A stretch of 64,000 nucleotides of DNA from Nitrospirota bacterium (GTDB taxonomy: Bacteria; Nitrospirota; Thermodesulfovibrionia; Thermodesulfovibrionales; Dissulfurispiraceae). Where the stretch lies: the NCBI GenBank assembly GCA_040758355.1, contig JBFLWF010000007.1, positions 1 to 64,000 on the forward strand, in the 5' to 3' direction. The notes beneath the pieces were generated by a model, which was given only the letters and a program-made list of their open reading frames with translations, was not told the origin of the DNA and did no database searches. The position numbers were made by a program, and so were the translations under genes. This document shows positions 2,013 through 59,379 of the stretch, one piece after another. How positions within the stretch are numbered: the first letter of the stretch is position 1; the number at the start of each line of letters is the position of its first letter.

Positions 2013-3326
2013 ATGCCCTCTACCCGCCAGATTGCACTCACAGTCCTCAATAAGATCTTCAATAAAGGGATAAAGCCCAAAGAAGCGCTCGATGAATTGT
2101 CCGGTGATTTGGATAAAAGGGACAGGGCGTTTCTTATGGAGATTGTTTATGGAGTTTTGAGATACAGGGATTATCTTGACTATATGCTCAAGGATTTTTT
2201 GAAAAAGCCTTCAGGCCTTTCTCCGAATACATTAAATAATCTGAGGGCTGCTGTTTATCAGCTAAAGTACATGCGTGTGCCTGAATGGGCTGTTGTGGAT
2301 GAGGCGGTGAATCTCGAAAGGTTCAATCAGGGGAAAAGGGCATTGGTAAATGCGGTATTAAGAAATTTTCTGAGACATAAAGACGAGATAAAAGACCCTT
2401 CTAAAGATGACCCTGCTGAATACATATCCATTACTACATCCCATCTGCGATGGCTTGTAAAGAGATGGATTAAAAGATTCGGATTTGACGAGGCATTAAA
2501 GCTCGCAGAGGCGAATAACAGGATACCGCCTGTTGTTTTGAGGGCAGAGAGCGCAGAAAAAAGAGAAGAAATGTTAAAGAAATTTGCCGAAAAGGGTATA
2601 GAGGCTTATCCTACAGAATTTTCACCGGTTGGGATTGTTCTAAAAGAATTTCCTGCAGCTTTAAACTCCGAACTCTTAACTCATAACTTATTTGTTCAGG
2701 ACGAGGCTGCACAGCTTGTAGCATATTTTTTAAATCCATTGCCTCATGAAAGGGTTCTGGATGCCTGCGCTGCGCCTGGAGGAAAGACAACACACATTGC
2801 ACAGATGATGAAAGATAGCGGAGAAATAATAGCGGTAGAGTCGGAAGAGAAGAGGATAAGGCAATTGAAGGAGAATGTTTCGAGGCTCGGCTTGAGATCG
2901 ATCAAAGTTATTCACGGCGATGTAAAATCCCTTGATGTCGCAAGATTTGACAGAATCCTCCTTGATGCCCCATGCTCATCTATTGGTGTCATTAGGAGGA
3001 ATCCTGATGTAAAATACAGGCACACAAAAAAAGACCTCATCGGATATAAGGAAAATCAGCTTGACATGCTCAGGGCAGTATCGCGGTTTCTTAAGACAGG
3101 CGGCATTATGGTATATTCTGTATGCTCCACAGAGCCGGAAGAGGGGGAGGAGGTCATCAAGGAATTTTTACACAGCAACCCTGATTTTAGTATTATAGAG
3201 GGAGACCATGATTTCCTGAAGCCTTTCGAGGTATTAGATAAGGATGGACATCTTTTTTACAGGACATTCCCTCACAGGCATAATATGGACGGCTTTTTTG
3301 CTGCAAGGCTGAAAAGGATCGGATGA
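2013..3326 (+). CDS. rsmB: 16S rRNA m5C967 methyltransferase
   Basis: NusB-like N-domain; VQDEAAQ, DACAAPGGKT, DAPCS, YSVCS, DGFFAA motifs. Confidence 0.93.
   Translation: MPSTRQIALTVLNKIFNKGIKPKEALDELSGDLDKRDRAFLMEIVYGVLRYRDYLDYMLKDFLKKPSGLSPNTLNNLRAAVYQLKYMRVPEWAVVDEAVNLERFNQGKRALVNAVLRNFLRHKDEIKDPSKDDPAEYISITTSHLRWLVKRWIKRFGFDEALKLAEANNRIPPVVLRAESAEKREEMLKKFAEKGIEAYPTEFSPVGIVLKEFPAALNSELLTHNLFVQDEAAQLVAYFLNPLPHERVLDACAAPGGKTTHIAQMMKDSGEIIAVESEEKRIRQLKENVSRLGLRSIKVIHGDVKSLDVARFDRILLDAPCSSIGVIRRNPDVKYRHTKKDLIGYKENQLDMLRAVSRFLKTGGIMVYSVCSTEPEEGEEVIKEFLHSNPDFSIIEGDHDFLKPFEVLDKDGHLFYRTFPHRHNMDGFFAARLKRIG
2664..2689. repeat. 7-mer tandem (AACTCnn) in frame in rsmB
   Basis: aactccg aactctt aactcat aactt, encoding NSELLTHN. 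Confidence 0.55.
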
Positions 3327-3832
3327 ATAAATTAATAAAGATACCGCTCTATATCATCGCAATATTCGCCATCGGTATGATTTCAGGCCACTTCACCTTT
3401 AAAGTGCTGAGCTTCAGCAGGACTGTTACCGTGCCCGACCTCAGGGGCAAGGGTATGGTTGATGCCAATGATATGCTTAGGAAAAAAGGTTTGCATATAA
3501 GGCTTGAGGGAGAAGACTACGATTCCTATATCCCACAAGGGTATATAATACGCCAGGATATACCTCCAAAGAACAGCGTAAAAGAGGGAAGGGAGATAAG
3601 GGTTGTGCTGAGCAAAGGCCCGAAGGTCAGATATGTCCCCGATGTTGTGGGACAGCCCCTTGAGGCTGCAGAGGCCATACTAAAAGAAAAAGGCATAAGA
3701 ATCGGCAAGGTGCTGTACATCCATTCGGATAAAGTAGTAAAGAATATAATACTTGCACAAAGACCCGAGACCAATGAGAAGGGCGGAGATAATTTCAGCG
3801 TGATTGTAAGCTTGGGAGACTTTGAAAAATAG
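3323..3832 (+). CDS. PASTA-domain membrane protein
   Basis: N-terminal TM helix and two VPDL/VPDV..G..A..L PASTA repeats. Confidence 0.85.
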   Translation: MNKLIKIPLYIIAIFAIGMISGHFTFKVLSFSRTVTVPDLRGKGMVDANDMLRKKGLHIRLEGEDYDSYIPQGYIIRQDIPPKNSVKEGREIRVVLSKGPKVRYVPDVVGQPLEAAEAILKEKGIRIGKVLYIHSDKVVKNIILAQRPETNEKGGDNFSVIVSLGDFEK

Positions 3833-3841
3833 GAGGGAAGG

Positions 3842-4495
3842 ATGATAAAGATTGCCCCGTCAATATTATCGGCTGATTTTATGAGACTCGGCGAAGAGAT
3901 AAAGGCTGCTGAGACTGCCGGCGCCGATATGCTTCATCTGGATATAATGGACGGACATTTTGTTCCGAATATCACCATTGGCCCTGCATTTGTTGAGGCA
4001 ATAAGGAGGACAACCACCCTGCCCCTCGATGTGCATCTGATGATAGAGGAGCCCGATAAGTTCTTGAGGGACTTTATTAAGGCAGGTGCGGATTATATCA
4101 CAGTCCATGTGGAGACATCTGTTCATCTTCACAGGACAATCCAGTGGATAAAGGAGAGCGGCGTAAAGGCAGGAGTGTCTTTGAATCCGGCCACGCCTAT
4201 ATGGAGCCTCGATCATATACTGCCAGACCTTGATATGGTGCTCTTGATGTCGGTCAATCCTGGTTTTGGCGGACAGGAATTTATACCCTGTGTGCTGGAC
4301 AAGATAAAGTCATTGAGAAACATCATTAAAGAGAGGGGATTTAATGTCCTCATAGAGGTGGACGGAGGAGTAAAGCCCGACAATGCCAAGGAAATAGCTC
4401 TGGCAGGCGCTGATATTCTTGTTATGGGCTCTGCATTTTTCAATTCAGAGGATTATGGGGTCTTAATGAAACGGCTGAGGGAGATGTTGAAATAG
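3842..4495 (+). CDS. rpe: Ribulose-phosphate 3-epimerase
   Basis: IAPSILSADF, HLDIMDGHFVPN, MSVNPGFGGQ, EVDGG. Confidence 0.97.
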   Translation: MIKIAPSILSADFMRLGEEIKAAETAGADMLHLDIMDGHFVPNITIGPAFVEAIRRTTTLPLDVHLMIEEPDKFLRDFIKAGADYITVHVETSVHLHRTIQWIKESGVKAGVSLNPATPIWSLDHILPDLDMVLLMSVNPGFGGQEFIPCVLDKIKSLRNIIKERGFNVLIEVDGGVKPDNAKEIALAGADILVMGSAFFNSEDYGVLMKRLREMLK

Positions 4496-4499
4496 AGAT

Positions 4500-5591
4500 A
4501 TGGAAGACAAGATATATGAATTGATCAGGCAAGCCGAGATATTAAGGGAGAAAGCTGAATATAAAGATTCCCTCATGCTTTTTAAAAAGGCACTCTCAAT
4601 CAGTAAGAGGCACGGTATCCTCGACGGCGCTCTCGATTCCACCATTGCCATGGCCGATATCTACAGGATGACAGGAAACTTTGATAAGGCTGTGAAGAAT
4701 TATGAGGATGCATTGGAGGCATCCGAGGCATTGGGGAATAAGTTGACTGCTGCTGACTGTATGGCGGGAATGGGTTTGTCTTTACGGGCAATGGGGATGT
4801 GGAGGGATGCCATAAGGTTTATATCTGCTGCAAGAAAGATTTACGAGAAAGAGAAGGACAAAAAGGGGACTGCATTTTCTTTATGGGCAGAGGCAGGCGC
4901 CTTGAGGGTTGCGGGCGATATTACAAGGGCTATTAAAAAATTCAACGAGTCAAAGAATATATTCTCAAGTGCAAAGGATACATCAGGAGCGGCTTATTCA
5001 TTGTGCGGACTTGGCGGTGCACACAGGATTGCAGGCAAATTTAAAGAGTCAATGAATTACTATAAGCAGGCAAACGAGACATTCAGGAATCTCAAAGACA
5101 AATTCGGTATTGCCTATTCCCACTGCGGCATCGGCAATGCCTGCAGGATGCTTGACAATTACAAGGATGCCTTAAGACATTTTGAAAAGGCAACAGCACT
5201 TTATGAAGAGATAGGGGATGTTGTCAGCTATTCCTATACGCTCTGGAGCCTTGCCAATGTGCATAAGATGAAGATGGATTTCGCCAATGCCAAGTTCTAT
5301 ATAACAAAGGCCTTGAGGAATTTTAAAAAGACAAAGGATCCGAGAGGAATCATATACTGCAATCTGACACTTGGAGAAGTAATGTTTATGGAAGGCAGAA
5401 AGGGCATTGCCGAAAAGAAATTTCTTTTTGCCCTTCATAGTGCCGATGGGCATGATTTCAAGCTCGAAAAGTGCCATTCGCAGATGCTTTTAACAGCAGT
5501 CGGCAGTCAGCAGTCAGCAGTTAAAACCGAGTGTTACAAAAAGATGGGAGTATATCTGAAATTTACGGGCATCCCTTTTAATATGCCATGA
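4500..5591 (+). CDS. Tetratricopeptide repeat protein
   Basis: Repeated ~40 aa helical units (AYSLCGLG, AYSHCGIG). Confidence 0.8.
   Translation: MEDKIYELIRQAEILREKAEYKDSLMLFKKALSISKRHGILDGALDSTIAMADIYRMTGNFDKAVKNYEDALEASEALGNKLTAADCMAGMGLSLRAMGMWRDAIRFISAARKIYEKEKDKKGTAFSLWAEAGALRVAGDITRAIKKFNESKNIFSSAKDTSGAAYSLCGLGGAHRIAGKFKESMNYYKQANETFRNLKDKFGIAYSHCGIGNACRMLDNYKDALRHFEKATALYEEIGDVVSYSYTLWSLANVHKMKMDFANAKFYITKALRNFKKTKDPRGIIYCNLTLGEVMFMEGRKGIAEKKFLFALHSADGHDFKLEKCHSQMLLTAVGSQQSAVKTECYKKMGVYLKFTGIPFNMP
5494..5521. repeat. (CAGCAGT)x4 in frame in TPR gene
   Basis: cagcagt cggcagt cagcagt cagcagt, encoding AVGSQQSAV. Confidence 0.8.
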
Positions 5592-7479: not shown

Positions 7480-8312
7480 ACATAAGCGGAAAGACAAAGG
7501 TGACAGGGCTTTTCGGCTATCCTGTGGAGCACAGCCTCTCACCGGCAATGCATAATGCTGCCTTTGAGTATCTGAATCTGGATTATTGCTATGTGACCTT
7601 TTCCGTAAGACCGGATATGCTGAAGGATGCGGTGCATGCCATCAGGGCGCTAAATTTAAGCGGTGTAAATGTCACTGTTCCTCACAAAGAAAATGTTATG
7701 CCTTTTCTGGATGAAATCAGCGAAGAGGCATCCTTTATCGGTGCTGTTAATACAATAAAAAATAACGATGGGAAACTGACAGGATACAACACGGACGGCC
7801 GGGGCTTTATGCAGTCTTTATCCGAGGCAGGCATAGATGTCAAAAACAAGAAAATATTTATTGCCGGCGCAGGCGGCGCCTCCCGCGCCACAGGCTATTA
7901 TCTCTGCAGAGAGGCATCGGAAGTTTATCTTTATGATGTTGATACAAGAAGGGCTGATGCATTAAAGGGGCATCTGAACAAACTTGAGGGCAATGTTTCC
8001 CTTGCAGATGCGAATGACATCAAGGACAAAGATTTCTTCTCGGGGGTTGATATTGTTATCAATGCAACACCGCTCGGATTAAAGGCTGACGATCCAATGC
8101 CCGTGGACATATCCCTGATTGATAAAAACCATGTTGTGTGCGACCTGATATACAAAGAAACCCCTCTTTTGCGTGAGGCCTCGAAAAAAGGCTGTAAGAC
8201 CATGGACGGCCTCGGTATGCTTCTCTATCAGGGTGTTTTTGCATTCGAGATATGGACAGGAATAATGCCGCCTGTGGAAGTGATGAGACAGGCAATAGGC
8301 AATAGACGATAG
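7476..8312 (+). CDS. aroE: Shikimate dehydrogenase
   Basis: GYPVEHSLSP, NVTVPHK, GAVNT, NTDG, GAGGA, NATPLG. Confidence 0.95.
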   Translation: MNISGKTKVTGLFGYPVEHSLSPAMHNAAFEYLNLDYCYVTFSVRPDMLKDAVHAIRALNLSGVNVTVPHKENVMPFLDEISEEASFIGAVNTIKNNDGKLTGYNTDGRGFMQSLSEAGIDVKNKKIFIAGAGGASRATGYYLCREASEVYLYDVDTRRADALKGHLNKLEGNVSLADANDIKDKDFFSGVDIVINATPLGLKADDPMPVDISLIDKNHVVCDLIYKETPLLREASKKGCKTMDGLGMLLYQGVFAFEIWTGIMPPVEVMRQAIGNRR

Positions 8313-8363
8313 GCAATTGGCGACTTTCATTTATAGCCTATTACCTATTGCCTATCGCCTGTC
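8287..8363. repeat. Inverted pair of (GGCAATA)/(TATTGCC) 7-mer tandems overlapping the aroE stop
   Basis: gacaggcaataggcaatagacgataggcaa ... cctattacctattgcctatcgcctgtc. Confidence 0.8.
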
Positions 8364-8368
8364 GTTAG

Positions 8369-8927: not shown

Positions 8928-9438
8928 GACATTGGTTATAGGTTATAGGTTATGGGTCATAGGTATTTTTTTTATTTTTTACCTATCACCTATCACCTAT
9001 CACCTATCACCTGTATTTGCTCAGGAAAAAAAGAGTGCATCGAAAGAACCTACTGTCATAACCTCGGAAATACTGACTGCCGACAATAAGGCCAAGACCG
9101 CCCTTTTTGAGAAGTCAGTCGTGGCAAGGAAGGGAGAGATGACCCTGTTTGCCGATAAGATGCTGGTGTATTATTCGGAGGAGAAGGGGAGCAGCAATAT
9201 TAAACGGATCGATGCCGAGGGGAATGTCAAGCTTATAAAAGGGGAACGCGTTGTAACATCCAAATTCGCTACTTATTTTGCCGAGCCTGAAGAAAAGATT
9301 ATATTCACGGGAGAGCCGAGGGCAACCGAGGGTGAAAATGTGGTGACAGGCACAAAGATGATATATTTTATGAAGGATGACCGCTCCATAGTCGAAAACA
9401 GCAAGGTCTTGTTAATAGAGCGGAGGGGCGGAAGGTAA
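8917..9438 (+). CDS. lptA: LPS transport periplasmic protein LptA
   Basis: Signal peptide; OstA-like motifs (LFADKM, AEGNV, TGEPR, TGTKM). Confidence 0.8.
   Translation: MENKTLVIGYRLWVIGIFFIFYLSPITYHLSPVFAQEKKSASKEPTVITSEILTADNKAKTALFEKSVVARKGEMTLFADKMLVYYSEEKGSSNIKRIDAEGNVKLIKGERVVTSKFATYFAEPEEKIIFTGEPRATEGENVVTGTKMIYFMKDDRSIVENSKVLLIERRGGR
8934..9012. repeat. Inverted 7-mer tandems (GGTTATA)x4 / (ACCTATC)x4 forming the lptA signal peptide
   Basis: 8934-8964 and 8981-9012, encoding VIGYRLWVIG and LSPITYHLSP. Confidence 0.85.
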
Positions 9439-13230: not shown

Positions 13231-14390
13231 TTTATCTTGATCACAATGCCACGACTCCCATCGATGAAGATGTAAAGAAGGCAATGGCTGATGTCTTCCA
13301 ATTATTCGGCAACCCTTCAAGCAGCCACAGCATCGGCAGGGCAGCAAAGGCTGCTGTGGACAGTGCGAGAAAACAAGTTGCTGATTTAATTGCATGCGAT
13401 CCTTCAGAGATAATTTTTACATCAGGGGGTACGGAATCGAATAATCTTGCCATAATCGGCACTGCTTATAAATATCAAAAGGGACATATAATAACATCCG
13501 TTATCGAGCATCCTGCTGTTTTAAATCCTGTGAAATGGCTTGAGATGAAGGGTTTTGCGGCTACCTATCTTCCGGTGGATTCTGAGGGAAGGGTCAATCC
13601 TGATGATGTAAAAAGAGCAATAAGAAAAGATACTATTCTGATAACTATTATGCATTCCAACAATGAGACAGGAGTGCTTCAGCCTATTCAAGAAATTGGT
13701 ATGATTGCGCGTGAGCACAACATAACATTTCACTCGGATGCTGCACAGAGCGTCGGGAAAATGGATGTGAAGATCTCTGAATTGATGGCCGATATGCTTA
13801 CTATTGTATCGCACAAGTTTTACGGACCCAAGGGCGTTGGCGCATTATACTTAAGGAATGGAATTGATGTGATGCCCATAATGTTCGGTGCAGGGCACGA
13901 AGGGGGAATAAGGCCGGGAACAGAGAATGTCATAGGGATCTCCGGCCTTGGAAAGGCATGCGAAATTGCTGTGCGTGATATGCCTTTTAGATATGAACGC
14001 ACACTCAAGCTTAGAGACGCACTGTTTTCTCTATTGGGAAGCAAACTCGCTGTTAAACTCAACGGGCATAAGACAATGAGGCTTCCGAATACGCTTAATG
14101 TATCTATAATCGGGTCAAGGGGCAATCTACAAGACCCTGCGGGGGGTCAAGGGTCAAGGATTTTAGGTGAAGATATTGTGGAACAATTAAAAGATAAAGT
14201 TGCTTTCTCTGCAGGCTCTGCATGCCATTCAGGCATCAGAAAACCTTCGTCCGTCTTAAAGGCAATGGGATTATCAGATGAAGATGCCCTTTCGTCAATA
14301 AGACTGAGTGTAGGCAAAGACAATACCATCAGAGAAATAGAAGATGCCGCAGAGATGATAATTCAGACCGTAAATGAGTTAATGAGTTAA
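13227..14390 (+). CDS. iscS: Cysteine desulfurase (IscS/NifS family)
   Basis: MIYLDHNATTP from ATG 13227; GNPSS, SGGTESNN, SHKFYGPKG, GSAC. Confidence 0.9.
   Translation: MIYLDHNATTPIDEDVKKAMADVFQLFGNPSSSHSIGRAAKAAVDSARKQVADLIACDPSEIIFTSGGTESNNLAIIGTAYKYQKGHIITSVIEHPAVLNPVKWLEMKGFAATYLPVDSEGRVNPDDVKRAIRKDTILITIMHSNNETGVLQPIQEIGMIAREHNITFHSDAAQSVGKMDVKISELMADMLTIVSHKFYGPKGVGALYLRNGIDVMPIMFGAGHEGGIRPGTENVIGISGLGKACEIAVRDMPFRYERTLKLRDALFSLLGSKLAVKLNGHKTMRLPNTLNVSIIGSRGNLQDPAGGQGSRILGEDIVEQLKDKVAFSAGSACHSGIRKPSSVLKAMGLSDEDALSSIRLSVGKDNTIREIEDAAEMIIQTVNELMS
14112..14159. repeat. GGGTCAA tandem with 28 bp hairpin core, in frame in iscS
   Basis: Core caatctacaagaccctgcggggggtcaa at 14123-14150 is identical to 24190-24217. 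Confidence 0.9.
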
Positions 14391-14433
14391 TGGGCTGAAC
14401 TCATACATTTATCTACCCATTTGCCCATCTACT
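14370..14433. repeat. Inverted 8-mer tandem pair (GAGTAAAT-type) at the iscS end
   Basis: gtaaatgagttaatgagttaatggg ... atctacccatttgcccatctact; supplies the iscS TAA. Confidence 0.65.
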
Positions 14434-15009: not shown

Positions 15010-15593
15010 AAAAAATTTCAAATTTCAAATTTCAAATTTCAAATTTATTGTTTACTGTTTGCTTTTCACTATTCTCCGTGACTGCTTTTGCAGCAGAAGC
15101 TGGCGGCGAGCACGGTGGTTCGATAATGGAGTGGGTATGGAGAATAGTTAATTTTGCAATACTCGTATTTATTCTCGTTAAGTTCCTTAACAAACCTCTT
15201 AAAAACTATCTTCAGCAGAGAAAAGAACTGATAGAAAAGAGCATCAAAGAGGCACGGGAGGCAAAGGAGCTTGCCATGAAGGCTCTCGCAGAGGTCGAGG
15301 AGAGACTAAAGGTCAAGGATAAAGAGATGGAGGAGATTATTTCCTCTGCAAAGAGTTCAGGCGAAAAGGAAAAGGAAAGGCTTATAGAAGAAGGAGAGAA
15401 ATTAAAGGCCAAGATTCTGGAGCAGGCAAAGACAAATATCGAATACGAGGTCAAGAGAGCAAAAGAGACGATCAAGGCAGAGGCGGTGGATGCAGCCATG
15501 CAGCTCGCAGAGGAAAAGATCAAGGCCAAGATGACAAAGGATGACCAGGAGAAACTCCTCGCAGAGTCTTTAAAGCTGATGCATAAAAATTAA
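15006..15593 (+). CDS. atpF: ATP synthase F0 subunit b
   Basis: WRIVNFAILVFIL..KP TM followed by coiled coil; operon context. Confidence 0.9.
   Translation: MKKISNFKFQISNLLFTVCFSLFSVTAFAAEAGGEHGGSIMEWVWRIVNFAILVFILVKFLNKPLKNYLQQRKELIEKSIKEAREAKELAMKALAEVEERLKVKDKEMEEIISSAKSSGEKEKERLIEEGEKLKAKILEQAKTNIEYEVKRAKETIKAEAVDAAMQLAEEKIKAKMTKDDQEKLLAESLKLMHKN
15013..15046. repeat. (AAATTTC)x~5 in frame in the atpF N-terminus
   Basis: Encodes ISNFKFQISN. Confidence 0.9.
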
Positions 15594-16160: not shown

Positions 16161-17669
16161 ATGGAAATCAAAGTGGAAGAGATCAGCGAGTATCTGAAAA
16201 AACAAATAGCCGATTTTGAGAAGCGCGTTGATGTCAGCGAAGTCGGCGTCGTTACCAATGTGGGTGACGGTATCGCCAGAATCTACGGCCTTGACAACTG
16301 CATGGCATCAGAGCTCCTCGAGTTTCCCAACGGCGTGTTCGGAATGGCGCTAAACCTCGAAGAGGACGTAATCGGTGCGGTTCTCTTCGGTGAGGATACC
16401 CTTATTAAAGAAGGCGATGTGGTAAAGAGGACAGGAAAAATCATGTCTGTCCCTGCCGGAGAAGAGATGGTAGGCAGGGTTATCAATGCCATCGGCCAGC
16501 CCATCGACGGCAAGGGCCCCATCAATGCGAAGTCAAGCAGGATAGTCGATGTCGTTGCACCCGGTATTGTTGACAGGCAGCCTGTCAGAGAGCCTCTCCA
16601 GACAGGAATAAAGGCAATCGATGCCATGATCCCCGTTGGGAGGGGACAGAGGGAACTCATCATCGGCGACCGCCAGACAGGAAAGACAGCAATTGCCATC
16701 GATGCAATCATCAACCAGAAAGGCGGCGATGTAATTTGCATATATGTCGCAGTCGGTCAGAAGAGGGCTTCTGTTGCCCGTGTTGTCAAGACCCTCGAGG
16801 AGCACGGTGCAATGGCGCACACCATCGTTGTTTCAGCAACTGCCAGCGAGCCGGCACCACTTCAGTACATAGCCCCTTATACCGGATGTGCAATCGGCGA
16901 ATATTTCAGAGACAATGGGAAGCATGCATTAATCATATATGACGACTTAAGCAAACAGTCTACAGCATACAGACAGCTCTCTTTGCTCCTCAGGCGTCCT
17001 CCCGGACGCGAGGCATTCCCCGGAGATGTTTTCTATCTCCACTCAAGGCTTCTCGAAAGGGCGGCAAAATTGAGCGATGAGCTGGGCGGAGGTTCATTGA
17101 CCGCACTCCCAATAATCGAGACACAGGCCGGCGACGTTTCAGCATATATTCCCACAAACGTCATCTCCATTACAGATGGACAGATATATCTCGAGCCCGA
17201 CCTCTTCTATGCAGGCGTCAGGCCTGCAGTCAATGTCGGTCTCTCGGTCAGTCGTGTCGGCGGCGCAGCACAGACAAAGGCAATGAAGCAGGTTGCAGGA
17301 ACCCTCAGACTCGACCTCGCACAGTTCAGGGAGCTCGCAGCATTTGCACAGTTCGGCTCCGACCTCGACAAGGCGACACTGGCCCAGATTGAGAGAGGCA
17401 AGAGAATGGTCGAGATACTGAAGCAGGACCAGTATGTGCCGCTCCCTGTCGAGGATCAGGTGGCCTTAATCTTTGCAGGTTCTCAGGGGCATCTCGATGA
17501 CATACCTGTTGAAGCGATTAAGAGATTCGAGGCCGAGTTCCTCTCTTTTATGAGAGACAAAAAGGCTGATGTGAAGAACGAGCTGAAAGAGAAGAAGGCA
17601 ATTGACGATACCATGAAAGAGAAGCTCAATTCTGCGATTGCCGAATTCAAGAAGGGCTTTATTATTTAG
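16161..17669 (+). CDS. atpA: ATP synthase alpha
   Basis: [31 protein letters not shown]. Confidence 0.99.
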
Positions 17670-17748
17670 TAAATGAGTGAATCAGTAAATGAGTAAATGG
17701 GCAAAATATTACTCATAAACTCATTAACCCATATACTCATTAACTCAT
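17668..17748. repeat. Intergenic inverted 8-mer tandem pair
   Basis: agtaaatgagtgaatcagtaaatgagtaaatggg ... tactcataaactcattaacccatatactcattaactcat. Confidence 0.85.
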
Positions 17749-17765
17749 AGGTGAGAGGAGAATAA

Positions 17766-20100: not shown

Positions 20101-20133
20101 AAATTTCAAATTTGAAATTTCAAATTTCAAATT
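20101..20133. repeat. (AAATTTC/G) 7-mer tandem, intergenic
   Basis: aaatttcaaatttgaaatttcaaatttcaaatt. Confidence 0.85.
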
Positions 20134-23703: not shown

Positions 23704-23734
23704 AGTAATGGAGTAATGGAGTTGTGGAGTAATG
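23704..23734. repeat. (GGAGTAAT) 8-mer tandem supplying the mqnA SD and ATG
   Basis: agtaatggagtaatggagttgtggagtaATG. Confidence 0.75.
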
Positions 23735-24627: not shown

Positions 24628-24708
24628 GTGAATGGGCGTATGAGTGAATGGGTAGATGAGCGGAGTTTTTTACCCATATACTCATTAACTCTTTTACTCA
24701 TTAACTCA
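24628..24708. repeat. Intergenic inverted 8-mer tandem pair
   Basis: gtgaatgggcgtatgagtgaatgggtagatgag ... tacccatatactcattaactcttttactcattaactca. Confidence 0.8.
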
Positions 24709-30187: not shown

Positions 30188-30193
30188 AAATAC

Positions 30194-30271
30194 AGTAATT
30201 GAGTAATCAAGTAAATGAGTAATTGAGTTTTTGATTTCTTATTTACTCAATAACTTAATCGCTTAATTACT
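30194..30271. repeat. Intergenic inverted 8-mer tandem pair
   Basis: agtaattgagtaatcaagtaaatgagtaattgag ... ttatttactcaataacttaatcgcttaattact. Confidence 0.8.
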
Positions 30272-30281
30272 TTCGGAGGCA

Positions 30282-41193: not shown

Positions 41194-41622
41194 TTACACA
41201 GATTAAAATAGATTACACAGATTATGGAAAATAGGGACCCTCTTACAGAGCAGATAATAGCATGTTGTTACAGGGTTCACTCAGATTTAGGTCCTGGATT
41301 TAATGAGAGGATATATCATGCTGCTCTTAAAGTAGATTTTGAACAGCAGGGATTAAAATACGAAACGGAAAAGCGATTCGAAGTTTATTATCAAGGCAAA
41401 AAAGCAGGTAATTTTGTTGCAGACTTAGTTGTTGAGGATAAAATTATAGTTGAAATTAAGGCAGTATCTGGAAATATTCCAGATATTTTTAAATACCAGG
41501 TGCTTTCTTATCTAAAGGCATCTAATCTAAAGGTTGGCTTATTAGTTAATTTTGGGAATAAGAGTTGTCAAATCAAAAGATTTGTGTTTTAATCTGTGTA
41601 ATCTGATAAAATCTGTGTAATC
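41192..41622. mobile_element. Repeat-bracketed GxxExxY cassette
   Basis: GATTACACAGATT x2 (41192, 41211) on the left and AATCTGTGTAATC x2 (41591, 41610) on the right, with 6 nt spacers. Confidence 0.75.
41224..41592 (+). CDS. GxxExxY protein (PD-(D/E)XK-like)
   Basis: LGPGFNERIY motif; ADLVVEDKIIVEIK; QVLSYLK..GLLVNFG. Confidence 0.92.
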   Translation: MENRDPLTEQIIACCYRVHSDLGPGFNERIYHAALKVDFEQQGLKYETEKRFEVYYQGKKAGNFVADLVVEDKIIVEIKAVSGNIPDIFKYQVLSYLKASNLKVGLLVNFGNKSCQIKRFVF

Positions 41623-41642: not shown

Positions 41643-42092
41643 ATGCTAAAAGCAAAAGACATAATGACGCGCGATGTTATAACAGTCAAACCAACCACCA
41701 CCATAGAAGAGATGGCACGGATATTTATAGAAAAGAAAGTCAGCGGTGCGCCTGTGGTGGATGACAATGGTGATGTAATAGGCATTGTTACCGAAAATGA
41801 TCTCATAAGCCAGAATAAAAGGCTGCATATTCCGACTGTTGTGCGGCTGTTTGACGCCTTTATAATGCTCGAGAGCCCGAGCAAGATAGAAAAGGAAATC
41901 AAAAAGATGGCTGCGGTTACAGTGTCCGATATATGCGTCAGGGATGTCATAACAGTTGCGGAAGACACCGCCGTGGAAGACATAGCCACGATAATGTCTG
42001 AGAAGAAGGTGCATCTTATTCCTGTTGTTGAGGGCAAAAAGGTTCGCGGAATAATCGGCAAGATGGATATAATCAAAGGGATGGTGAGATAG
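41643..42092 (+). CDS. CBS-domain pair protein
   Basis: AKDIMTRDVITV, GAPVVD..GIVTENDL, second CBS repeat. Confidence 0.9.
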   Translation: MLKAKDIMTRDVITVKPTTTIEEMARIFIEKKVSGAPVVDDNGDVIGIVTENDLISQNKRLHIPTVVRLFDAFIMLESPSKIEKEIKKMAAVTVSDICVRDVITVAEDTAVEDIATIMSEKKVHLIPVVEGKKVRGIIGKMDIIKGMVR

Positions 42093-42157
42093 CTGATAGC
42101 TGATAGCTGATAGCTGATAGCAAAAGACTATGAGCTATGAGCTATGAGCCATGAGCT
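42088..42157. repeat. Inverted (GATAGCT)x5 / (CTATGAG)x4 pair supplying the CBS stop and the tsaE start
   Basis: TAG 42090-92 and ATG 42144 both lie inside repeat units. Confidence 0.9.
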
Positions 42158-45739: not shown

Positions 45740-46492
45740 ATGAACAAGATTGACAGCTTGAAAATAGTTCTTGAGTTTTATAAAGAACTCGGCTTTGAGA
45801 GACTGCCGCTTAATTACAGCGGTCAGCAGTCAGCAGTCAGCAATCAGGGCGTTAAACGAGCTGAACCTTTTGAACGAATTACTACTGTAGGCGGTTCAAG
45901 CCGTTCAAGAAGTTCAAATAGTCACAAAGAGGCTTTACTCAAGGTGATTCGCGATGAAATCGGCGACTGCCAGAGGTGCAAGCTTTCCATAGGAAGGACG
46001 CATATCGTCTTTGGCGAGGGCAATGCGAATGCAAAAATAATGTTTATCGGAGAGGGCCCTGGAAGGGAAGAAGACCTGCAGGCACGGCCTTTTGTAGGCG
46101 ATGCAGGACAGCTTTTGACAAGACTCATTGAGAGGATGGGCTTTAAGAGGGAGGACGTGTATATTGCGAATATCGTAAAATGCAGACCGCCCATGAACAG
46201 GGATCCGCAGGATGACGAGATATCTACATGTTTCCCTTTTCTTGATAAGCAGATCGATATAATATCTCCAGAAGTGATAGTGTCCCTCGGGAAGATATCC
46301 GCATACATGCTCATGGGAGTTAAAGGCCCTATAAGCAAATTCTCCATTACAAAGGTCCGTGGAAGATTTTATGAATATAAGGGAATTCCTGTGATGCCCA
46401 CATTCCATCCGGCGTATCTTTTAAGAAATCCAAAGGATAAGTGGCTTACATGGGAGGATGCGCAGGCAGTGCTTAAGAAGTTAAGTAAATGA
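45740..46492 (+). CDS. udg: Family-4 uracil-DNA glycosylase
   Basis: CQRCKL, GEGPG, PFVG, NIVKCRPP.NR, TFHPAYLLR. Confidence 0.94.
   Translation: MNKIDSLKIVLEFYKELGFERLPLNYSGQQSAVSNQGVKRAEPFERITTVGGSSRSRSSNSHKEALLKVIRDEIGDCQRCKLSIGRTHIVFGEGNANAKIMFIGEGPGREEDLQARPFVGDAGQLLTRLIERMGFKREDVYIANIVKCRPPMNRDPQDDEISTCFPFLDKQIDIISPEVIVSLGKISAYMLMGVKGPISKFSITKVRGRFYEYKGIPVMPTFHPAYLLRNPKDKWLTWEDAQAVLKKLSK
45817..45918. repeat. CAGCAGT tandem plus inverted 9-mer (TTGAAC/GTTCAA) tracts in the udg linker
   Basis: Tracts at 45817-47, 45852-76 and 45892-918, encoding SGQQSAVSNQ..GGSSRSRSSN. Confidence 0.75.
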
Positions 46493-46555
46493 AGTAAATA
46501 AGTAAATAAGTGAATGAGGTGTCAATGACTTAATAACTCAATAACTTATTTGCTC
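46483..46555. repeat. Inverted 8-mer tandem pair at the udg end
   Basis: aagtaaatgaagtaaataagtaaataagtgaatgag ... gacttaataactcaataacttatttgctc. Confidence 0.7.
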
Positions 46556-47702: not shown

Positions 47703-48260
47703 ATGAAAATCCTCGGAATCGATCCCGGAAGTATAAACTGTGGGTATGGACTAATAACAAAAATTAGAAAAATTAGGGACACATCCCATATTTATGGAAG
47801 TATAAGCCGAAAGGTGGATACAAATATGGGATGTGTCCCTAATTTTTCTAAGCTCCAGTATCTTTCCTCCGGCAGAATTGTTCTTCCTGCCAAAAAACCC
47901 CTTTATGTGAGACTCAGAGAACTCTACACATCCCTTGCGGATGTGATTGCTGAATATAAGCCCGATGAAATAGTGATCGAAAAGATATTTTTTGCAAAAG
48001 GCACTAAGGCTGCCCTCAGCCTCGGGCATACAAGGGGAGTGGTGCTTCTTGCTGCTTCCTTAACCGGCCTTTCTATTTATGAGTACAGCGCCCTTGAGGT
48101 GAAGAAGGCAGTAGTGGGTTACGGCAGGGCTGATAAGAATCAGGTGCAGAAGATGGTAAGGGAAATATTAAACATTAAGCATTCATTATCTCCGGACAGC
48201 GCAGATGCGCTCGCATTAGCAATCTGCCATGCAAATACGAGACAGTTTGATTTGCGATAA
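47703..48260 (+). CDS. ruvC: Holliday junction resolvase with in-frame palindromic insertion
   Basis: MKILGIDPG, IEKIF, LGHTRG, KKAVVGYG.A.K.QV, DSADALA. Confidence 0.93.
   Translation: MKILGIDPGSINCGYGLITKIRKIRDTSHIYGSISRKVDTNMGCVPNFSKLQYLSSGRIVLPAKKPLYVRLRELYTSLADVIAEYKPDEIVIEKIFFAKGTKAALSLGHTRGVVLLAASLTGLSIYEYSALEVKKAVVGYGRADKNQVQKMVREILNIKHSLSPDSADALALAICHANTRQFDLR
47764..47851. repeat. Perfect 30 bp inverted repeat inside ruvC
   Basis: TTAGAAAAATTAGGGACACATCCCATATTT (47764-93) and its exact reverse complement (47822-51). Confidence 0.95.
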
Positions 48261-50697: not shown

Positions 50698-51699
50698 ATG
50701 AGAATATGGAGTATTCGTGTTGCTGTCTTTGTGCTGTTTATTGCCTATTGCCTATTGCCTATTGCCTCATTCGCCGAGACCACCATAAGGGTATTGCTTG
50801 TTGACGGCAAGAATGCAAAGCTTCCCAAAAAGGACGAAAAGATTGAGAGGTTCGGCAATGCAAAGGGAGAAGTGCTTTTGAGCGGACTGAAGTATTCAGG
50901 TTCTATAGAGGTGTGGAAAGGGGACAACGGTCTTTACATTGTAAATGAAATACCCATTGAGGATTATATAAAGGGCGTTGTCGCCGGAGAGGTGGGAAAT
51001 AGCTGGGATATAGAGGCGCTGAAGGCACAGGCTGTTGTGGCGAGGACTTATGCCCTTTATCAAAAGCTGAATAGCAGTAAAATGCCTTATCATCTGACAT
51101 CGTCCGTTCTTCATCAGGTCTATAAGGGCGGCAATATACCCGAGAATATAGCAAAGGCAGTGAATGATACGAGGGGCGAAATATTGACATATGAAGGCAA
51201 GCCGATAATCGCATACTATCATTCCACAAGCGGCGGCATGACAGAAGACCCTGCCGAGGTGTTTGGAAAGAGCTATCCATATTTGAAGCCAGTGGAGACG
51301 AGCTGCGAACTATCTCCTTATTTTATGTGGGAGAAACGCATACCTGTGTCCGAAATTGAGCGGGCATCAAATGTGACAGGCGTAAAAGAGATTATGATAG
51401 ATGATCTGACGGTTTCCAACCGTGCGAGGGATTTTAGGATTATTACAGAGAACGGTGAACATAAAATTCCCGCCAAGGAATTAAGGAAGAGCCTCGGCTG
51501 GGACAGACTGCCGAGCACCATGATAACAAATATCGCAAAGGACGAGGATTTCTACATATTCGAGGGCAGGGGCTACGGACATGGTGTCGGGATGTGCCAG
51601 TGGAGTGCCCTCGATATGGCAAAGAAGGGAACGAGTTACAGGGATATATTGTCTAAGTTTTATCCGGGGACTGTCATAGAGTTACATGAGAACCGCTGA
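50698..51699 (+). CDS. SpoIID/LytB domain protein
   Basis: EALKAQAVVARTY, QVY, GYGHGVGMCQW. Confidence 0.9.
   Translation: MRIWSIRVAVFVLFIAYCLLPIASFAETTIRVLLVDGKNAKLPKKDEKIERFGNAKGEVLLSGLKYSGSIEVWKGDNGLYIVNEIPIEDYIKGVVAGEVGNSWDIEALKAQAVVARTYALYQKLNSSKMPYHLTSSVLHQVYKGGNIPENIAKAVNDTRGEILTYEGKPIIAYYHSTSGGMTEDPAEVFGKSYPYLKPVETSCELSPYFMWEKRIPVSEIERASNVTGVKEIMIDDLTVSNRARDFRIITENGEHKIPAKELRKSLGWDRLPSTMITNIAKDEDFYIFEGRGYGHGVGMCQWSALDMAKKGTSYRDILSKFYPGTVIELHENR
50739..50766. repeat. (TATTGCC)x4 in the signal peptide
   Basis: Encodes IAYCLLPIA. Confidence 0.9.
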
Positions 51700-52729
51700 C
51701 TTTGATTTTTACCTGCCAAAGGATTTAATTGCATTAAGACCTTCGGAGAAACGGGATAATTCGAAGCTCCTCGTCCTGCACAGGGATGGAAGCATCGAGC
51801 ACAGGAGGTTTTTTGATATTGCCGAATACCTGAAGGAAGGGGATATGCTTATGCTTAACAACACAAAGGTATTCCCTGCAAGGATTATTGCAACAAAACC
51901 TTCAGGCGGGAAGATTGATGTTCTGCTCATTAAAGATACAAATGAGGATAGTACATGGGAGATAATGTGCAGGGGCAGGTTTAATGGCATGGTAACAATT
52001 GGTGATGGGGTTAAGGCAGAGGTGTGGACAGAAGAAGTCAAGAGTCAAGAGTCAAAAAAGTTTTTAAGGTTTTTGAATATAGAGCCATCAAAGGTTAATG
52101 ATGTGTTCTGGCAATATGGCCGTATGCCTTTGCCTCCATACATAAACCGCATGCCTGACGATGCAGATAAACAGAGATACCAGACCGTTTATGCAGAACA
52201 TCAGGGGTCGATTGCTGCCCCAACTGCAGGCCTCCATTTTACCGAAGAGCTTCTCAATAAAATAAAAGATAAAGGTGTATCTGTTGAGGCATTGACACTT
52301 CATGTAGGTACTGGTACATTTAGACCTATAAAGACAGAGTACTTAGAAGATCACAGAATGGATTCAGAATATTTTGAGATAAAATCATCTCTGGCGAATA
52401 AAATACAGAAGACAAAAGAGTCCGGCTGCAGGCTTATAACAGTAGGGACAACAGCAACAAGGGCGTTGGAGGGTTTTATGAGCGGTCTGTTTCAGAGACT
52501 CAGCTCTGTAAATGGTTCTGTGCGTGGATACACGGATATCTTTATATACCCGGGGTATAAATTTAGGGCAGTGGACAGCCTTATAACCAATTTCCATCTC
52601 CCGCGTTCCACTCCGCTGATGCTTGTATCTGCGTTGAGCGATTTCAAGAAAATATTACATGCTTACAAGGAGGCAATTGCCATGGGTTATAGATTTTTTT
52701 CCTATGGTGATGCTATGCTCATTTTATGA
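51686..52729 (+). CDS. queA: SAM:tRNA ribosyltransferase-isomerase
   Basis: DFDFYLP, PLPPYI, AAPTAGLHF, TNFHLP, FFSYGDAM. Confidence 0.97.
   Translation: MRTADFDFYLPKDLIALRPSEKRDNSKLLVLHRDGSIEHRRFFDIAEYLKEGDMLMLNNTKVFPARIIATKPSGGKIDVLLIKDTNEDSTWEIMCRGRFNGMVTIGDGVKAEVWTEEVKSQESKKFLRFLNIEPSKVNDVFWQYGRMPLPPYINRMPDDADKQRYQTVYAEHQGSIAAPTAGLHFTEELLNKIKDKGVSVEALTLHVGTGTFRPIKTEYLEDHRMDSEYFEIKSSLANKIQKTKESGCRLITVGTTATRALEGFMSGLFQRLSSVNGSVRGYTDIFIYPGYKFRAVDSLITNFHLPRSTPLMLVSALSDFKKILHAYKEAIAMGYRFFSYGDAMLIL
52035..52056. repeat. (GAGTCAA)x3 in queA
   Basis: Encodes EVKSQESK. Confidence 0.6.
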
Positions 52730-53511: not shown

Positions 53512-53589
53512 TAAATGAGTATATGGGTGAATGGGTATATGAGTAAGAAATATTACTCATCAACTCATATGCTCATCTACGCATTAACT
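53510..53589. repeat. Intergenic inverted 8-mer tandem pair
   Basis: agtaaatgagtatatgggtgaatgggtatatgagta ... tactcatcaactcatatgctcatctacgcattaact. Confidence 0.85.
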
Positions 53590-56218: not shown

Positions 56219-56618
56219 TCACCGCAGATACAGCTTTATCGAGTCTGCCGAGATAAGCGTGCTCTTTGTAAATGACAGGAAGATGAGGGAACTGAATCTG
56301 CAGTATCGCGGGAAAGATAAAACTACCGATGTCCTGTCGTTCCCACAAATTGAACAGTTCAAACAGTTTAAACGGTTTGAACTGTTAACTTCTCTCGGCG
56401 ATATTGTTATTAACCTTTCCCAGGCAAAAAGGCAGGCGAAGGAACACGGGCTGACCTTTTATAATGAGATCGCATGGCTTCTAATTCATGGAACCCTCCA
56501 CCTGCTCGGATATGACCATGAGAAGAATAAATACCAGGCAAGGAAGATGAGGGAGATGGAAAAAGAATTACTTACACTCCCTCTTAACACCATCAAGGAG
56601 GCTTCCTATCTGGTCTGA
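56121..56618 (+). CDS. ybeY: rRNA maturation endoribonuclease YbeY
   Basis: [34 protein letters not shown]. Confidence 0.93.
56350..56386. repeat. 9-mer tandem (TTnAACnGT) in ybeY
   Basis: Encodes [13 protein letters not shown] between DVLSFP and LGDIVI. Confidence 0.75.
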
Positions 56619-58466: not shown

Positions 58467-58542
58467 ACGCTGTTACCCCCTTGTTTTCAAACCTTACCCT
58501 TCTTGTCCGAAGGGTGGTAAAAATTATCTTGTTTTTGTATAA

Positions 58543-58818
58543 TTGATTATGGAAGTCATTATAGACACTTTAAAAATATACGAACGCCTCAAAGCAGCGG
58601 ATCTGCCTGAAAAGGCATCTAAAGAGATTGCAGAGGTCTTTAGAGAAACCATTGAAGAGCGTCTTGCCACAAAACAGGACTTAAAAGAACTTGAAAGACA
58701 TTTAGACCTACGTTTAAAAGAATTAGAATCATCAGTAAAAGCCGACCTCATCAAATGGGTAGCGGGAATGCTCGTGGCGCAGGCAGTAGTCATTGCAGCC
58801 CTTGTGAAACTGCTCTGA
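58543..58818 (+). CDS. Small DUF1640-like coiled-coil protein with C-terminal TM
   Basis: IDTLKIYERLK..LATKQDL..LIKWVAGML. Confidence 0.7.
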   Translation: MIMEVIIDTLKIYERLKAADLPEKASKEIAEVFRETIEERLATKQDLKELERHLDLRLKELESSVKADLIKWVAGMLVAQAVVIAALVKLL

Positions 58819-58836
58819 AATATCATAAACGCTCTC

Positions 58837-59379
58837 CTACTGCATTACAAAATCAGTAAAATAAATATTTTTGACATTGCCTTCTCCCAGTATCCGATTC
58901 AATCCGGCAAGCAATTCATCTTTAAGCTGCTGCTTCCCTTCAAACGAAGATATGTCATCAGGGGACTTGCTTGTAACAAGCATAATGATTGCATCCCTGA
59001 TGGCTCCTGTTTTTGTTTTTGCCTTTTCTGTTGCAGCCGGTGATGAAAGCTCAAGGTTTATGGACAGTTTTAAAAATCTGCTGCCCACATTCAGGATGAA
59101 TGGTTCTAACTGAAACATTGGCGTTTCTGCATCCTTTTTTGAAGATTTGCTGGCGTAACTATCGGTTGTGAAAGCAGGGCACAGAAGACAGAAAACAGAT
59201 AACAGACAAATCGAATATAAGAGATTTGTTTTAACTAATTGATTTGTAAGTTTTTTTTTTGGGGGGGGGGGGTAAATTAGGACATCTCCTATGAGTGACT
59301 TTGTTATTACTGCAGATAAGCATTTTTCTGTTTTGTTCAGCATTTTGTCCATATCAAAAATTAAAATAATATAGCACAC
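58837..59379 (-). CDS. fliL: Flagellar FliL-like protein (start uncertain)
   Basis: LEPFILN, IRDAII.L, EGKQQLKDEL, IYFTDFVMQ. Confidence 0.8.
   Translation of the reverse strand: MCYIILIFDMDKMLNKTEKCLSAVITKSLIGDVLIYPPPPKKKLTNQLVKTNLLYSICLLSVFCLLCPAFTTDSYASKSSKKDAETPMFQLEPFILNVGSRFLKLSINLELSSPAATEKAKTKTGAIRDAIIMLVTSKSPDDISSFEGKQQLKDELLAGLNRILGEGNVKNIYFTDFVMQ
59181..59207. repeat. (ACAGAnn) 7-mer tandem in the fliL TM
   Basis: Encodes CLLSVFCLL on the minus strand. Confidence 0.7.
59251..59272. repeat. T10-G12 homopolymer run
   Basis: tttttttttt gggggggggggg in the 5' part of the fliL ORF. Confidence 0.85.

Follow-up and report, generated by a model that had tools for sequence, protein, structure and literature searches.

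Heptamer arrays inside genes are already known from Geobacter, Xanthomonas, and Beggiatoa, and bacterial heptamer repeats in general have long been noted, in two of the accounts with the remark that no origin is known (PMC4692102; PMC4679880). The IVS of the Coxiella 23S rRNA, with its S23p protein, consists of a four-helix-bundle gene within an inverted-repeat stem, with tandem heptamers by the ORF, whose copy number differs among strains, and a patchy, horizontal spread (PMC4990558). This element resides in rRNA, whereas the elements described here occupy gene junctions and CRISPR ends and have gene-less arms at hundreds of sites; a spread of such arms, mostly inside proteins, is not described in the available text on the Coxiella IVS (PMC4990558). 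In Geobacter metallireducens, four tandem heptamers recur at 49 intergenic and intragenic sites, several of them in some genes, together with paired inverted octamer sites and five-heptamer sites, and the families were interpreted as regulator-binding sites (PMC2700814). Here the sites are roughly tenfold more numerous and the families far more diverse; as far as its accessible text goes, the Geobacter account neither compares orthologs nor describes overwritten loops or a link to a cassette (PMC2700814).

The GGGAATC arrays of Xanthomonas and the GGGGA(C/T)T arrays of Nostoc show a preference for four units, convergent inverted pairs, positions near stop codons, and sites that differ in sister species (PMC4692102). 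The portion of that study at hand describes one G-rich family, 89–93% intergenic in Xanthomonas and explained by G-quadruplexes (PMC4692102), whereas here most families are without G-tracts and more than half of the arrays lie in genes. TAACTGA, found in Beggiatoaceae, Cyanobacteria, and Bacteroidetes, occurs in 2–6 copies with its stop-bearing strand kept from ORFs; horizontal spread was suspected, a repeat-binding protein was proposed as the mobile part, and host regulator sites were also proposed for the Beggiatoaceae repeats (PMC4679880). It is a single family with few and peripheral in-gene copies, and the available text names no four-helix-bundle or IVS protein (PMC4679880). The Rickettsia palindromic elements (RPE) are inserted in frame in unrelated housekeeping genes, to which they add peptides; the excerpt available gives them as palindromes of about 150 bp with a conserved peptide, in 44 copies (PMC10969869). 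The arrays reported here are also found in frame in conserved genes, but they are tandem, about 30 nt long, often replace host sequence, number about 300 in genes, and lack a 100–150-bp palindrome with a conserved peptide. The analogy with RPE drawn in the initial annotation does not carry over to them: 198 of 237 in-gene arrays are solo and nonpalindromic, most measure about 25–38 nt, and inspection by eye showed no target duplication.

Arrays in the Genome and in the Window

The window is the whole stretch of 64,000 nt from contig JBFLWF010000007.1 of a Nitrospirota bacterium (assembly GCA_040758355.1). Loci were scored by TRF, printed sequence context, and a core-motif scan. TRF returned 542 arrays of period 7–9 with at least 2.8 copies in the 2.77-Mb genome, against three of period 7 and none of period 8–9 in a length-matched order-4 Markov control, and an independent autocorrelation scan gave 312, 133, and 20 arrays for periods 7, 8, and 9 (3, 3, and 0 in the control), in both scans far more than expected by chance. 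A few unit superfamilies cover most arrays (419 of 532 assigned). An arm has 4–5 units, each a 5–6-nt core with a variable 2-nt spacer; 290 of the 336 7-mer arrays of this genome have 4–5 copies. A universal limit of five copies was rejected, as at least seven copies occur at 49 of 121 loci of other phyla.

By location (n = 532), 300 arrays lie wholly within called genes, 146 are intergenic, and 86 straddle a boundary. The excess of 7–8-nt tandem arrays fits the long heptameric SSR/STRR class, but the mainly intergenic placement of that class does not apply here. Array-bearing genes make up 217 of the 2741 called (~1 in 13, ~8% of called proteins) and include essential ones, murD, folC, dxs, leuS, and smc being among the carriers; array peptides and shifted starts or stops can mislead gene callers and homology searches.

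Within the window, the tracts that the initial annotation reported in rsmB, a TPR gene, lptA, iscS, atpF, cls, mqnA (two), recJ (three), nnr, pgeF, udg, spoIID, queA, ybeY, and fliL were all located (table 1). Its claim that host frames stay open holds: the host ORFs are open and can be aligned with orthologs along almost their whole length, except fliL, which is alignable only from residue 52. The core-motif scan, as claimed, finds no array in atpA, atpD, secD, ruvB, or positions 32.3–40.3 kb; this last block, which had been called an island, is array-free but syntenic in three relatives, yet uncovered in one close strain.

Table 1. Repeat Features of the Window (G, Genomes of Relatives; X, Sequencing Runs)
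Positions	Strand	Feature	Comparison or remark
2664..2686	+	In-frame AACTCnn array, rsmB	11 aa vs 8 in G003; common to G002
5494..5521	+	CAGCAGT array in TPR gene	13 aa vs 15 and 14; relatives have other fillings of similar length
8290..8364	+	AGGCAAT/TATTGCC hairpin spanning aroE stop	Fold z -6.3
8934..9012	+	GGTTATA/ACCTATC hairpin, lptA leader region	Each unit with one mismatch; fold z -6.7
14112..14160	+	GGGTCAA array with small nested palindrome, iscS	+15 aa; absent in 3/3 relatives
14373..14394	+	8-mer left arm providing iscS stop	
15013..15046	+	AAATTTC array, atpF N-terminus	
17668..17749	+	8-mer hairpin, atpA-atpG	In G002; empty in G003, G010, G022; fold z -3.2
20101..20133	+	AAATTTC array, atpD-atpC	Absent in G010
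21168..21201	-	AAATTTC array in cls	Replacement, no net gain: 36 aa here, 38 in G010, which lacks the array
23704..23734	+	GGAGTAAT solo array, rtcB-mqnA	Empty in G002, G003, G022; G006 has another family
24176..24225	+	mqnA site 1, GGGTCAA array and nested palindrome	Hot spot; different families in relatives
24314..24344	+	mqnA site 2, GGGTCAA array	+8 aa; 17 aa in 4/7 relatives, 25 in G000, G019
24628..24708	+	8-mer hairpin 5' of yajC	
28145..28179	+	recJ site 1, CAGCAGT array past DHH motif	Hot spot; several other families among alleles
28233..28255	+	recJ site 2, CACTCCAG array	13 aa vs 8-10
28697..28730	+	recJ site 3, GAAATTC array	2-unit seed of G022/G016 + 21 nt
30186..30272	+	8-mer hairpin with own stop, panB-response regulator (rr)	In G006; empty in G002, G003, G004, G019, G022
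31022..31070	+	nnr site 1 array	Overwrites ~20 conserved residues; net +4 aa: 41 vs 37 in 8/8 relatives
31807..31836	+	nnr site 2, GGCAATA array	In-frame TAG altered
40429..40455	+	pgeF site 1, GAGTTTG array	+9 aa: 36 here, 27 in 5/6 relatives
40856..40975	+	pgeF site 2, composite GGGACA-type palindrome	REP-like, separate class; skipped in strain X3
41192..41622	+	Complete cassette: GxxExxY gene between 9-mer left arm and inverted right arm	
41224..41592	+	GxxExxY gene (TIGR04256, PF13366)	93% identity in G022; neighbours 60% and 77%
42088..42157	+	GATAGCT/CTATGAG hairpin, cbs stop to tsaE start	Fold z -5.7; replaced in X4, X6
45817..45917	+	udg linker, CAGCAGT array and 9-mer array	
46482..46546	+	8-mer hairpin, udg-hit	Absent in 4/4 relatives
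47760..47850	+	ruvC insert, GGGACA-type palindrome	Separate class; resembles flank of Y1 gene on C21
49096..49125	+	GGAGTAAT solo array, ruvA-ruvB	Other families in relatives
50739..50767	+	TATTGCC array, spoIID leader	
52036..52055	+	AGTCAAG array in queA	
53515..53576	+	8-mer hairpin 5' of phoH	Core-motif scan
56353..56386	+	9-mer array in ybeY	Same-length replacement: 17 aa vs 18 in G017
59181..59206	-	Array, fliL N-terminal region	Reading status and start uncertain; adjoins C/A homopolymer run
60446..60506	.	GGAGTAAT/CATTACTC hairpin, convergent ligD/ku	Empty in G001, G002; fold z -4.7

The repeats are short and the assembly is metagenome-derived, which could suggest an assembly artefact. 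The check rested on contigs of the probable source run: these span the cassette, the panB-rr hairpin, the mqnA tracts, and both main nnr tracts, with 0–2 differences where listed. In addition, the mqnA stretch recurs in a strain from an independent study, these same tracts are found again in further genomes, of which one is a single contig, and frames are preserved. This answers the concern raised in the initial annotation, and we regard an artefact as practically negligible.

Insertion, Replacement, and Variation among Relatives

The tracts had been taken for insertions of net length 3n. Ortholog alignments bear this out for iscS, pgeF, and mqnA, but in cls and ybeY the array overwrites host sequence of the same length, so that the same-length ortholog segments named in the initial annotation as evidence against insertion do occur in part. 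Filled and empty junctions, compared by eye, indicate that the host DNA replaced ranges from hardly any to about 60 nt, with no clear target duplications, in contrast to MITEs, which are characterized by terminal inverted repeats plus a target-site duplication. Individual elements are missing from close strains, and the same loop carries unrelated unit families in relatives; at recJ site 1 the tract spans 18 aa here and 5–12 in the shortest alleles, and a variant of nnr site 1 in X3 and X6 is shorter by 9 nt. Since arrays differ among close strains, this barely studied repeat class is actively rewriting proteins, among them essential ones, at the time scale that separates strains. Identity of the flanks beside tracts is 0.84–0.87 in G002 (0.90 far away) and 0.74–0.78 in G001 (0.81), but the profile is flat in G003 (0.78–0.80 near tracts, 0.81 far) and loops diverge faster anyway, so that co-conversion of flanks is at most faintly suggested.

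Part of this variation could come from a host-driven microsatellite process, in which slippage or error-prone repair would expand chance two-unit seeds of favored words and cassettes would merely carry or collect the products. The recJ site 3 array is an exact three-unit expansion of, or contraction to, a two-unit seed, which suggests that slippage contributes; partial seeds are present at the empty iscS site, arrays end in any phase, long arrays exist in other phyla, and for the dominant TCAGC family no cassette with such arms was found in this 93-contig assembly. The 21-nt difference at recJ site 3 fits unit-wise change; size changes of +45, +27, +24, and +12 nt at other sites are not unit multiples. 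As the whole explanation we nevertheless consider this process rather unlikely. The nnr site 1 array overwrites conserved residues where all eight relatives are seed-free. Periods 7 and 8 stand well above frame-neutral periods within genes (181 and 39 internal arrays, against 26 of period 6 genome-wide), and among 232 intergenic arrays, 151 are either paired or palindromic in themselves, compared with 11 of 5320 control placements. The panB-rr hairpin, missing from strains of runs X3, X4, and X6, points to one-step arrival of whole hairpins, and array load is tied to cassette genes, as detailed below. The period 7–8 excess, the few superfamilies, and the unrelated families at one loop thus favor dissemination over slippage alone, as initially proposed; the array of iscS at 14112 and that of mqnA at 24192 share the same core.

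Filtering by Frame, Strand, and Position

Arrays internal to genes carry their stop-bearing strand antisense in 169 cases and sense in 13, against a split of 47 versus 58 among intergenic arrays. In-frame stop triplets are altered in 20 of 20 instances, a figure partly built in because only open frames were called, and out-of-frame triplets are retained in 39 of 45. The three tracts of RecJ are its only internal low-confidence loops (pLDDT <50 at 178–187 for site 1, 207–211 for site 2, and 366–368 for site 3). All of this agrees with the earlier suggestion of selection for frame and tolerant position. Array density is 5.0 per 100 kb in the top coding-score quintile versus 12.8–19.6 in the other four, a slightly circular comparison, as arrays depress the coding score. 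For the host, the inserts are probably close to neutral, and filled and empty alleles chart which loops of core enzymes tolerate 3–15 foreign residues or full replacement.

Association with Four-Helix-Bundle and GxxExxY Genes

Inverted arms surround four-helix-bundle or GxxExxY genes at 28 of 30 loci from relatives, flank five of the six PF05635 matches of this genome, and adjoin six of seven GxxExxY genes among those listed (all by eye); the cassette sites examined are gene junctions and CRISPR repeats, not 23S rRNA. The unit families of in-gene tracts match those of cassette arms (by eye), and members of these families also occur across the chromosome as hairpins without a gene and as solo arms. 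For the window cassette, runs X4 and X6 each contain a filled and an empty allele, and X3 is empty; G002 retains the right arm of this cassette alone, after a deletion across a 4-nt microhomology, and in another genus the cassette is 89–97% identical against 64–83% in flanking bins.

Array load follows the presence of four-helix-bundle genes: none of 14 relatives lacking such a gene is array-rich, against 16 of 27 with one, and load correlates with gene count (rho 0.65), both across kin that are non-independent. By family, with labels assigned by eye, 6 of 10 genome-family pairs with a resident same-family cassette are rich, versus 12 of 113 without one, and for the isolated bursts in G005, G025, and G010 a matching cassette is present in every case. 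Arm family follows the protein tree (16 changes against a shuffled mean of 29.2, 0 of 200 shuffles reaching it), a clustering that could reflect mere descent as a unit. The suspected link to GxxExxY and four-helix-bundle genes is thus upheld; it was not found in print in our literature search. GxxExxY as the general driver was rejected, as the gene is present in only 6 of 41 genomes and in none of the four same-genus relatives. Carriage by phage was set aside after a low-sensitivity scan of viral contigs for close relatives of one TCAG-arm protein, which confirmed 0 of 16 pattern matches.

Hairpins at Gene Junctions

The window also holds many intergenic hairpins, which, like the GxxExxY cassette, were omitted from the initial annotation. 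In 35 of 53 hairpins the first arm begins within the last 30 nt of the upstream gene, second arms mostly stop directly ahead of the next ribosome site, and co-oriented neighbours are found for 199 of 228 classed intergenic arrays, versus 995 of 1319 gaps. Such placement, with conserved cores and variable spacers, would suit binding sites of a host nucleoid or translational regulator maintained by selection. We think this improbable given presence and absence among close strains, unrelated families at one junction, and arrays being commoner inside genes than between them; moreover, the transcribed strand has no bias of G-U over A-C (120 vs 110, p 0.55), on which ground selection on RNA hairpins was rejected too. 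There is also a purine–purine excess (233 vs 121), as partly expected from an A-rich sense strand.

Proposed Origin

On balance, we favor the reading that the tracts are dispersed, frame-filtered arms of IVS-type mini-cassettes, moved by a catalyst that we infer. The full element consists of an arm, a small gene (four-helix-bundle/S23p or GxxExxY), and an inverted arm. As the junctions compared by eye show, the tracts take the place of up to about 60 nt of host DNA with no clear target duplication, and selection retains net 3n changes, a stop-free strand, and positions in loops or leaders, leaving few arrays in highly expressed genes. Filled, empty, and differently filled alleles may then travel from strain to strain and from species to species in short recombined blocks, as mosaic alleles suggest, by which one loop would cycle through unrelated families.

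A difficulty for this reading is that whole cassettes are incompatible with essential genes, so solo arms must travel by some other route. No mobilising enzyme was identified, and a retroelement (DGR/Avd-linked) route was rejected as the 99% complete assembly has no reverse transcriptase (RVT_1) match. Capture by Ku/LigD was likewise rejected, Ku being present in 12 of 41 genomes and not found in the array-rich G003, G004, G005, G010, G019, and G022. The leading candidate, put forward tentatively, is the cassette's own four-helix-bundle pentamer, which might bind arms of its own family and promote their capture at breaks or forks through illegitimate recombination; the four-helix-bundle protein of this genome matches XCC0516, a solved pentamer (2gsc, five chains, E 2e-16). 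Counting against the reading as dispersed arms are the 12 rich genome-family pairs without a resident cassette, the failure to find a TCAGC cassette here, the exact three units at recJ site 3, and the higher copy numbers in other phyla. More speculatively still, the large and functionally unassigned S23p/IVS family of four-helix-bundle proteins could comprise sequence-specific rings that each read 4–5 units of their own word and mobilise gene-less arms in trans, with no classical transposase; the word of a cassette entering a lineage would then burst over the chromosome and overwrite tolerant loops in hundreds of proteins. If true, this would amount to a novel type of minimal selfish element, account for the heptamer excess long noted in bacteria, and provide a natural loop-insertion scan of essential enzymes. 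The genome already ties heptamer repeats to a defined gene cassette, with a testable candidate binder and family-level pairing.

Palindromes of a Separate Class

The inserts in ruvC and at the second site of pgeF, initially listed among the 7–9-nt arrays, are instead GGGACA-type palindromes. The genome has two PF01797 (Y1) genes, one of them broken, and their flanking GGGACA palindromes match these two inserts, which thus share a palindrome with Y1 gene flanks as REP/REPIN elements with RAYT do. Judging from this sequence match, movement by a Y1 (RAYT-type) HUH transposase is probably the right reading for both. HUH insertion leaves no target duplication, and none is clear at the array junctions; the panB-rr insert, too, is palindromic right to both ends. 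As an account of all tracts, however, RPE- or REPIN-like nonautonomous elements moved by Y1 are improbable, since most in-gene arrays are solo and nonfolding (198/237; recJ fold z +1.2) and arrays flank four-helix-bundle genes instead of Y1 genes.

Distribution and Structure of the Arrays

The window is made up of ordinary housekeeping genes, and every tract of 7–9-nt repeats that the initial annotation had listed in them is present at its site. Of eight named records compared with the genome at the DNA level, four matched, at best with 70–74% identity for Nitrospirota and 68% for a Nitrospinota record; the genome probably belongs to Nitrospirota. In the whole genome (2.77 Mb in 93 contigs, rated 99% complete), arrays of period 7–9 are strongly enriched, with 542 found versus 3 in an order-4 Markov control. 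After merging (n = 532), and with genes called by our own simple caller (2,741 genes), 237 arrays are gene-internal, 63 lie near gene ends, 146 are intergenic, and 86 are straddling; at least one array is hosted by 217 genes. A family could be assigned to 19 of the 20 multi-array hosts scanned, which were picked among the 170 genes with internal arrays; such hosts include murD, folC, dxs, leuS, smc, carB, purL, mfd, rimO, hypF, and nifEN.

Units are built of a core of 5–6 nt and a variable spacer, and 17 core patterns of our own definition cover 419 of the 532 arrays. Copy number is 4–5 in most arrays (290/336 of the 7-mers and 116/159 of the 8-mers), with more than five copies in 14 and 8 arrays, respectively. 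Earlier papers (PMC4692102, PMC2700814, PMC4679880) already describe heptamer arrays that favour four units, form inverted pairs, and in some cases lie in genes.

Among the 232 arrays between genes, 151 are hairpin arms or self-palindromic, versus 11 of 5,320 random placements. Those inside genes are mostly solo (198 of 237). The first arm usually lies over the upstream stop and the second ends ahead of the next ribosome site. Of six hairpins in intergenic or leader positions, five fold with z scores between −3.2 and −6.7, some having a single mismatch in each unit; the panB–rr hairpin folds weakly (z −1.3), and two in-gene stretches fold no better than shuffled sequences. Small palindromes are nested in GGGTCAA arrays at four places, and the core of one is found at just two sites of the genome, both inside the window. 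Two short 8-mer repeats lie directly upstream of a HicB-family gene.

The exact TCAGCAG array was found in many phyla, at 121 loci or more. Among the 121 listed, 19 have an open frame of at least 300 nt on both sides, indicating that in-frame landing is not unique to this lineage, and 49 have at least seven copies, indicating that the limit of five copies is a local feature. Of the same loci, 20 are matched by an inverted partner and 3 lie within 600 nt of a four-helix-bundle gene. In several Poribacteria records (loci L101, L145, L156, L168, and L170), the array lies within long open frames, a hint that a further lineage may have a heavy in-gene load.

Comparison with Orthologues and Close Strains

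Thirty recJ loci and the syntenic stretches of nine relatives revealed four patterns. Net insertion, as the initial annotation had supposed, holds for iscS (+15 aa; three of three relatives empty), pgeF (+9; five of six empty), and mqnA site 2 (+8; four of seven empty). It does not hold for nnr site 1, where some 20 conserved residues are overwritten with a net change of +4 (versus eight of eight relatives), nor for cls (−2) and ybeY (−1); these are replacements, without clear duplication. At recJ site 1, mqnA site 1, udg, and several junctions, unrelated families are found among relatives. Finally, recJ site 3 corresponds to the allele of two compared genomes (G022 and G016) expanded by 21 nt. 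The supposed insertions are thus partly replacements, and slippage has some part in them.

The strain comparison rests on contigs. Those of the probable source run span the mqnA tracts, the panB–rr hairpin, nnr, and the window's GxxExxY cassette, a cassette being a small four-helix-bundle or GxxExxY gene between inverted arms. A strain from a different study, ∼97–98% identical over the listed pieces, lacks both the hairpin and the cassette; its block over recJ sites 1–2 is replaced (130 by 124 nt), and its nnr site 1 is 9 nt shorter. Two further runs hold filled and empty cassette alleles. Together with the bridging contigs, this polymorphism shows that the elements are real, and recent or still segregating. 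Run X3, from a close strain, covers little of a tonB–fabH–ilvB–ABC–kinase block that is syntenic in G001, G002, and G022.

Filtering by Frame and Position

Where only one strand of an array carries a stop, internal arrays read the stop-free strand in 169 cases versus 13, a bias absent from intergenic arrays (47 vs. 58). In the 18 internal arrays whose sense consensus bears a stop, all 20 in-frame stop triplets are changed, a figure partly built in, whereas 39 of 45 out-of-frame triplets are kept. The arrays are therefore filtered by frame. They are also depleted in the top quintile of genes by coding score, and the expectation that tracts fall at tolerant positions was borne out when RecJ was modelled with AlphaFold2 (28 sequences, mean pLDDT 88.6): the three internal segments below pLDDT 50 are the three tracts. 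A rough count suggests that near-random landing over a genome with an 89% coding share, once filtered for frame, stops, and tolerance, gives the order seen, so that no in-frame targeting is needed.

Link to Four-Helix-Bundle Cassettes

The GxxExxY gene of the window (TIGR04256) is flanked by inverted 9-mer arms. The cassette is 89–97% identical to that of G022, from another genus, whereas flanking bins reach 64–83%, showing horizontal movement of this cassette. At the same junction it is not found in G001, G003, G010, and G017, and G002 keeps the right arm alone.

Inverted arms lie beside five of the six four-helix-bundle matches of the genome and, judged by eye, at 28 of 30 loci from relatives (30 of 89 listed matches, of which 40 more were read). 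Their words include in-gene array families; arrays and cassette arms thus have words in common. Heptamer arrays with IVS-type cassette-arm words rewrite loops in ∼8% of called genes. The interpretation given in the initial annotation is supported in part: a disseminating process is favoured over slippage alone, and slippage also acts. Array load (three pattern counts summed) correlates with four-helix-bundle count (rho 0.65), and a load of 7, a cut-off set after the data were seen and among kin genomes that are not independent, is reached in 16 of 27 genomes with such a gene versus 0 of 14 without. Counts of at least 20 occur in 6 of 10 genome–family pairs in which a cassette with arms of that family is resident, versus 12 of 113 without one (labels by eye). 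On a tree of 55 proteins (105 columns only; 18 unlabelled; excluding short fragments and five rows that were distant or partial), the 13 arm groups can be explained by 16 changes, versus a shuffled mean of 29.2. Against the link, the dominant TCAGC family has no matching cassette in this assembly. Searches of a literature set with few subscription journals found no paper linking these cassettes with arrays that are dispersed or lie in genes.

CRISPR-array ends hold four-helix-bundle cassettes between repeat copies, and different cassettes precede one shared trailer in G000 and G002. At the atpG–atpD junction of G003 (region L033), an AAATTTG array is directly followed by a 1.6-kb insert that contains a transposase-like ORF.

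Possible Mechanism

Arms may move alone, with alleles shuffled through short-block recombination, and the agent would be a four-helix-bundle ring, presumably TRAP-like with one repeat unit per subunit; the four-helix-bundle family is related to Avd. Such protein-driven mobilisation is a tentative and rather doubtful reading. The genome's four-helix-bundle protein matches XCC0516; the homopentameric state is described in PMC4990558. No support was found for reverse transcription in the genome, nor for Ku capture among the 41 genomes searched (ku in 12). The ligD–ku pair, likewise in 12 of the 41, has an array hairpin inserted between its genes.

A Second Class of Palindromes and Other Features

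GGGACA-type palindromes make up the ruvC insert and pgeF site 2. They behave like REP elements and are best treated separately from the arrays. The family, with 102 hits of its motif over the two strands, is often in frame in genes, and also flanks both Y1 genes of the genome, one of them broken.

Coordinates of features (window positions refer to contig C7:1–64000)
Feature	Position	Basis
GGGACA-type REP-like family	40856–40975 (pgeF site 2), 47760–47850 (ruvC); C21:13013, C10:9258	motif scan
Palindromes nested in GGGTCAA arrays	14125–14145, 24192–24212; C15:24134, C24:8699	
8-mer repeats; HicB-family gene	1613–1653; 1665	
tonB–kinase block	33100–39900	
ligD–ku pair	59519–61281	
CRISPR-end cassettes	G000 C24:130–660; L068, L054, L079, L258, L259	
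phoH	∼53595–54037	
fliL C/A runs (− strand)	∼59255–59280	

In phoH, no ATG, GTG, or TTG stands where the start is expected; an ACG after the ribosome site, kept in G002 and G003, suggests from the sequence a non-standard start. A long run of C and then one of A precede the likely fliL start, and may represent either a slippage site or an error of assembly.
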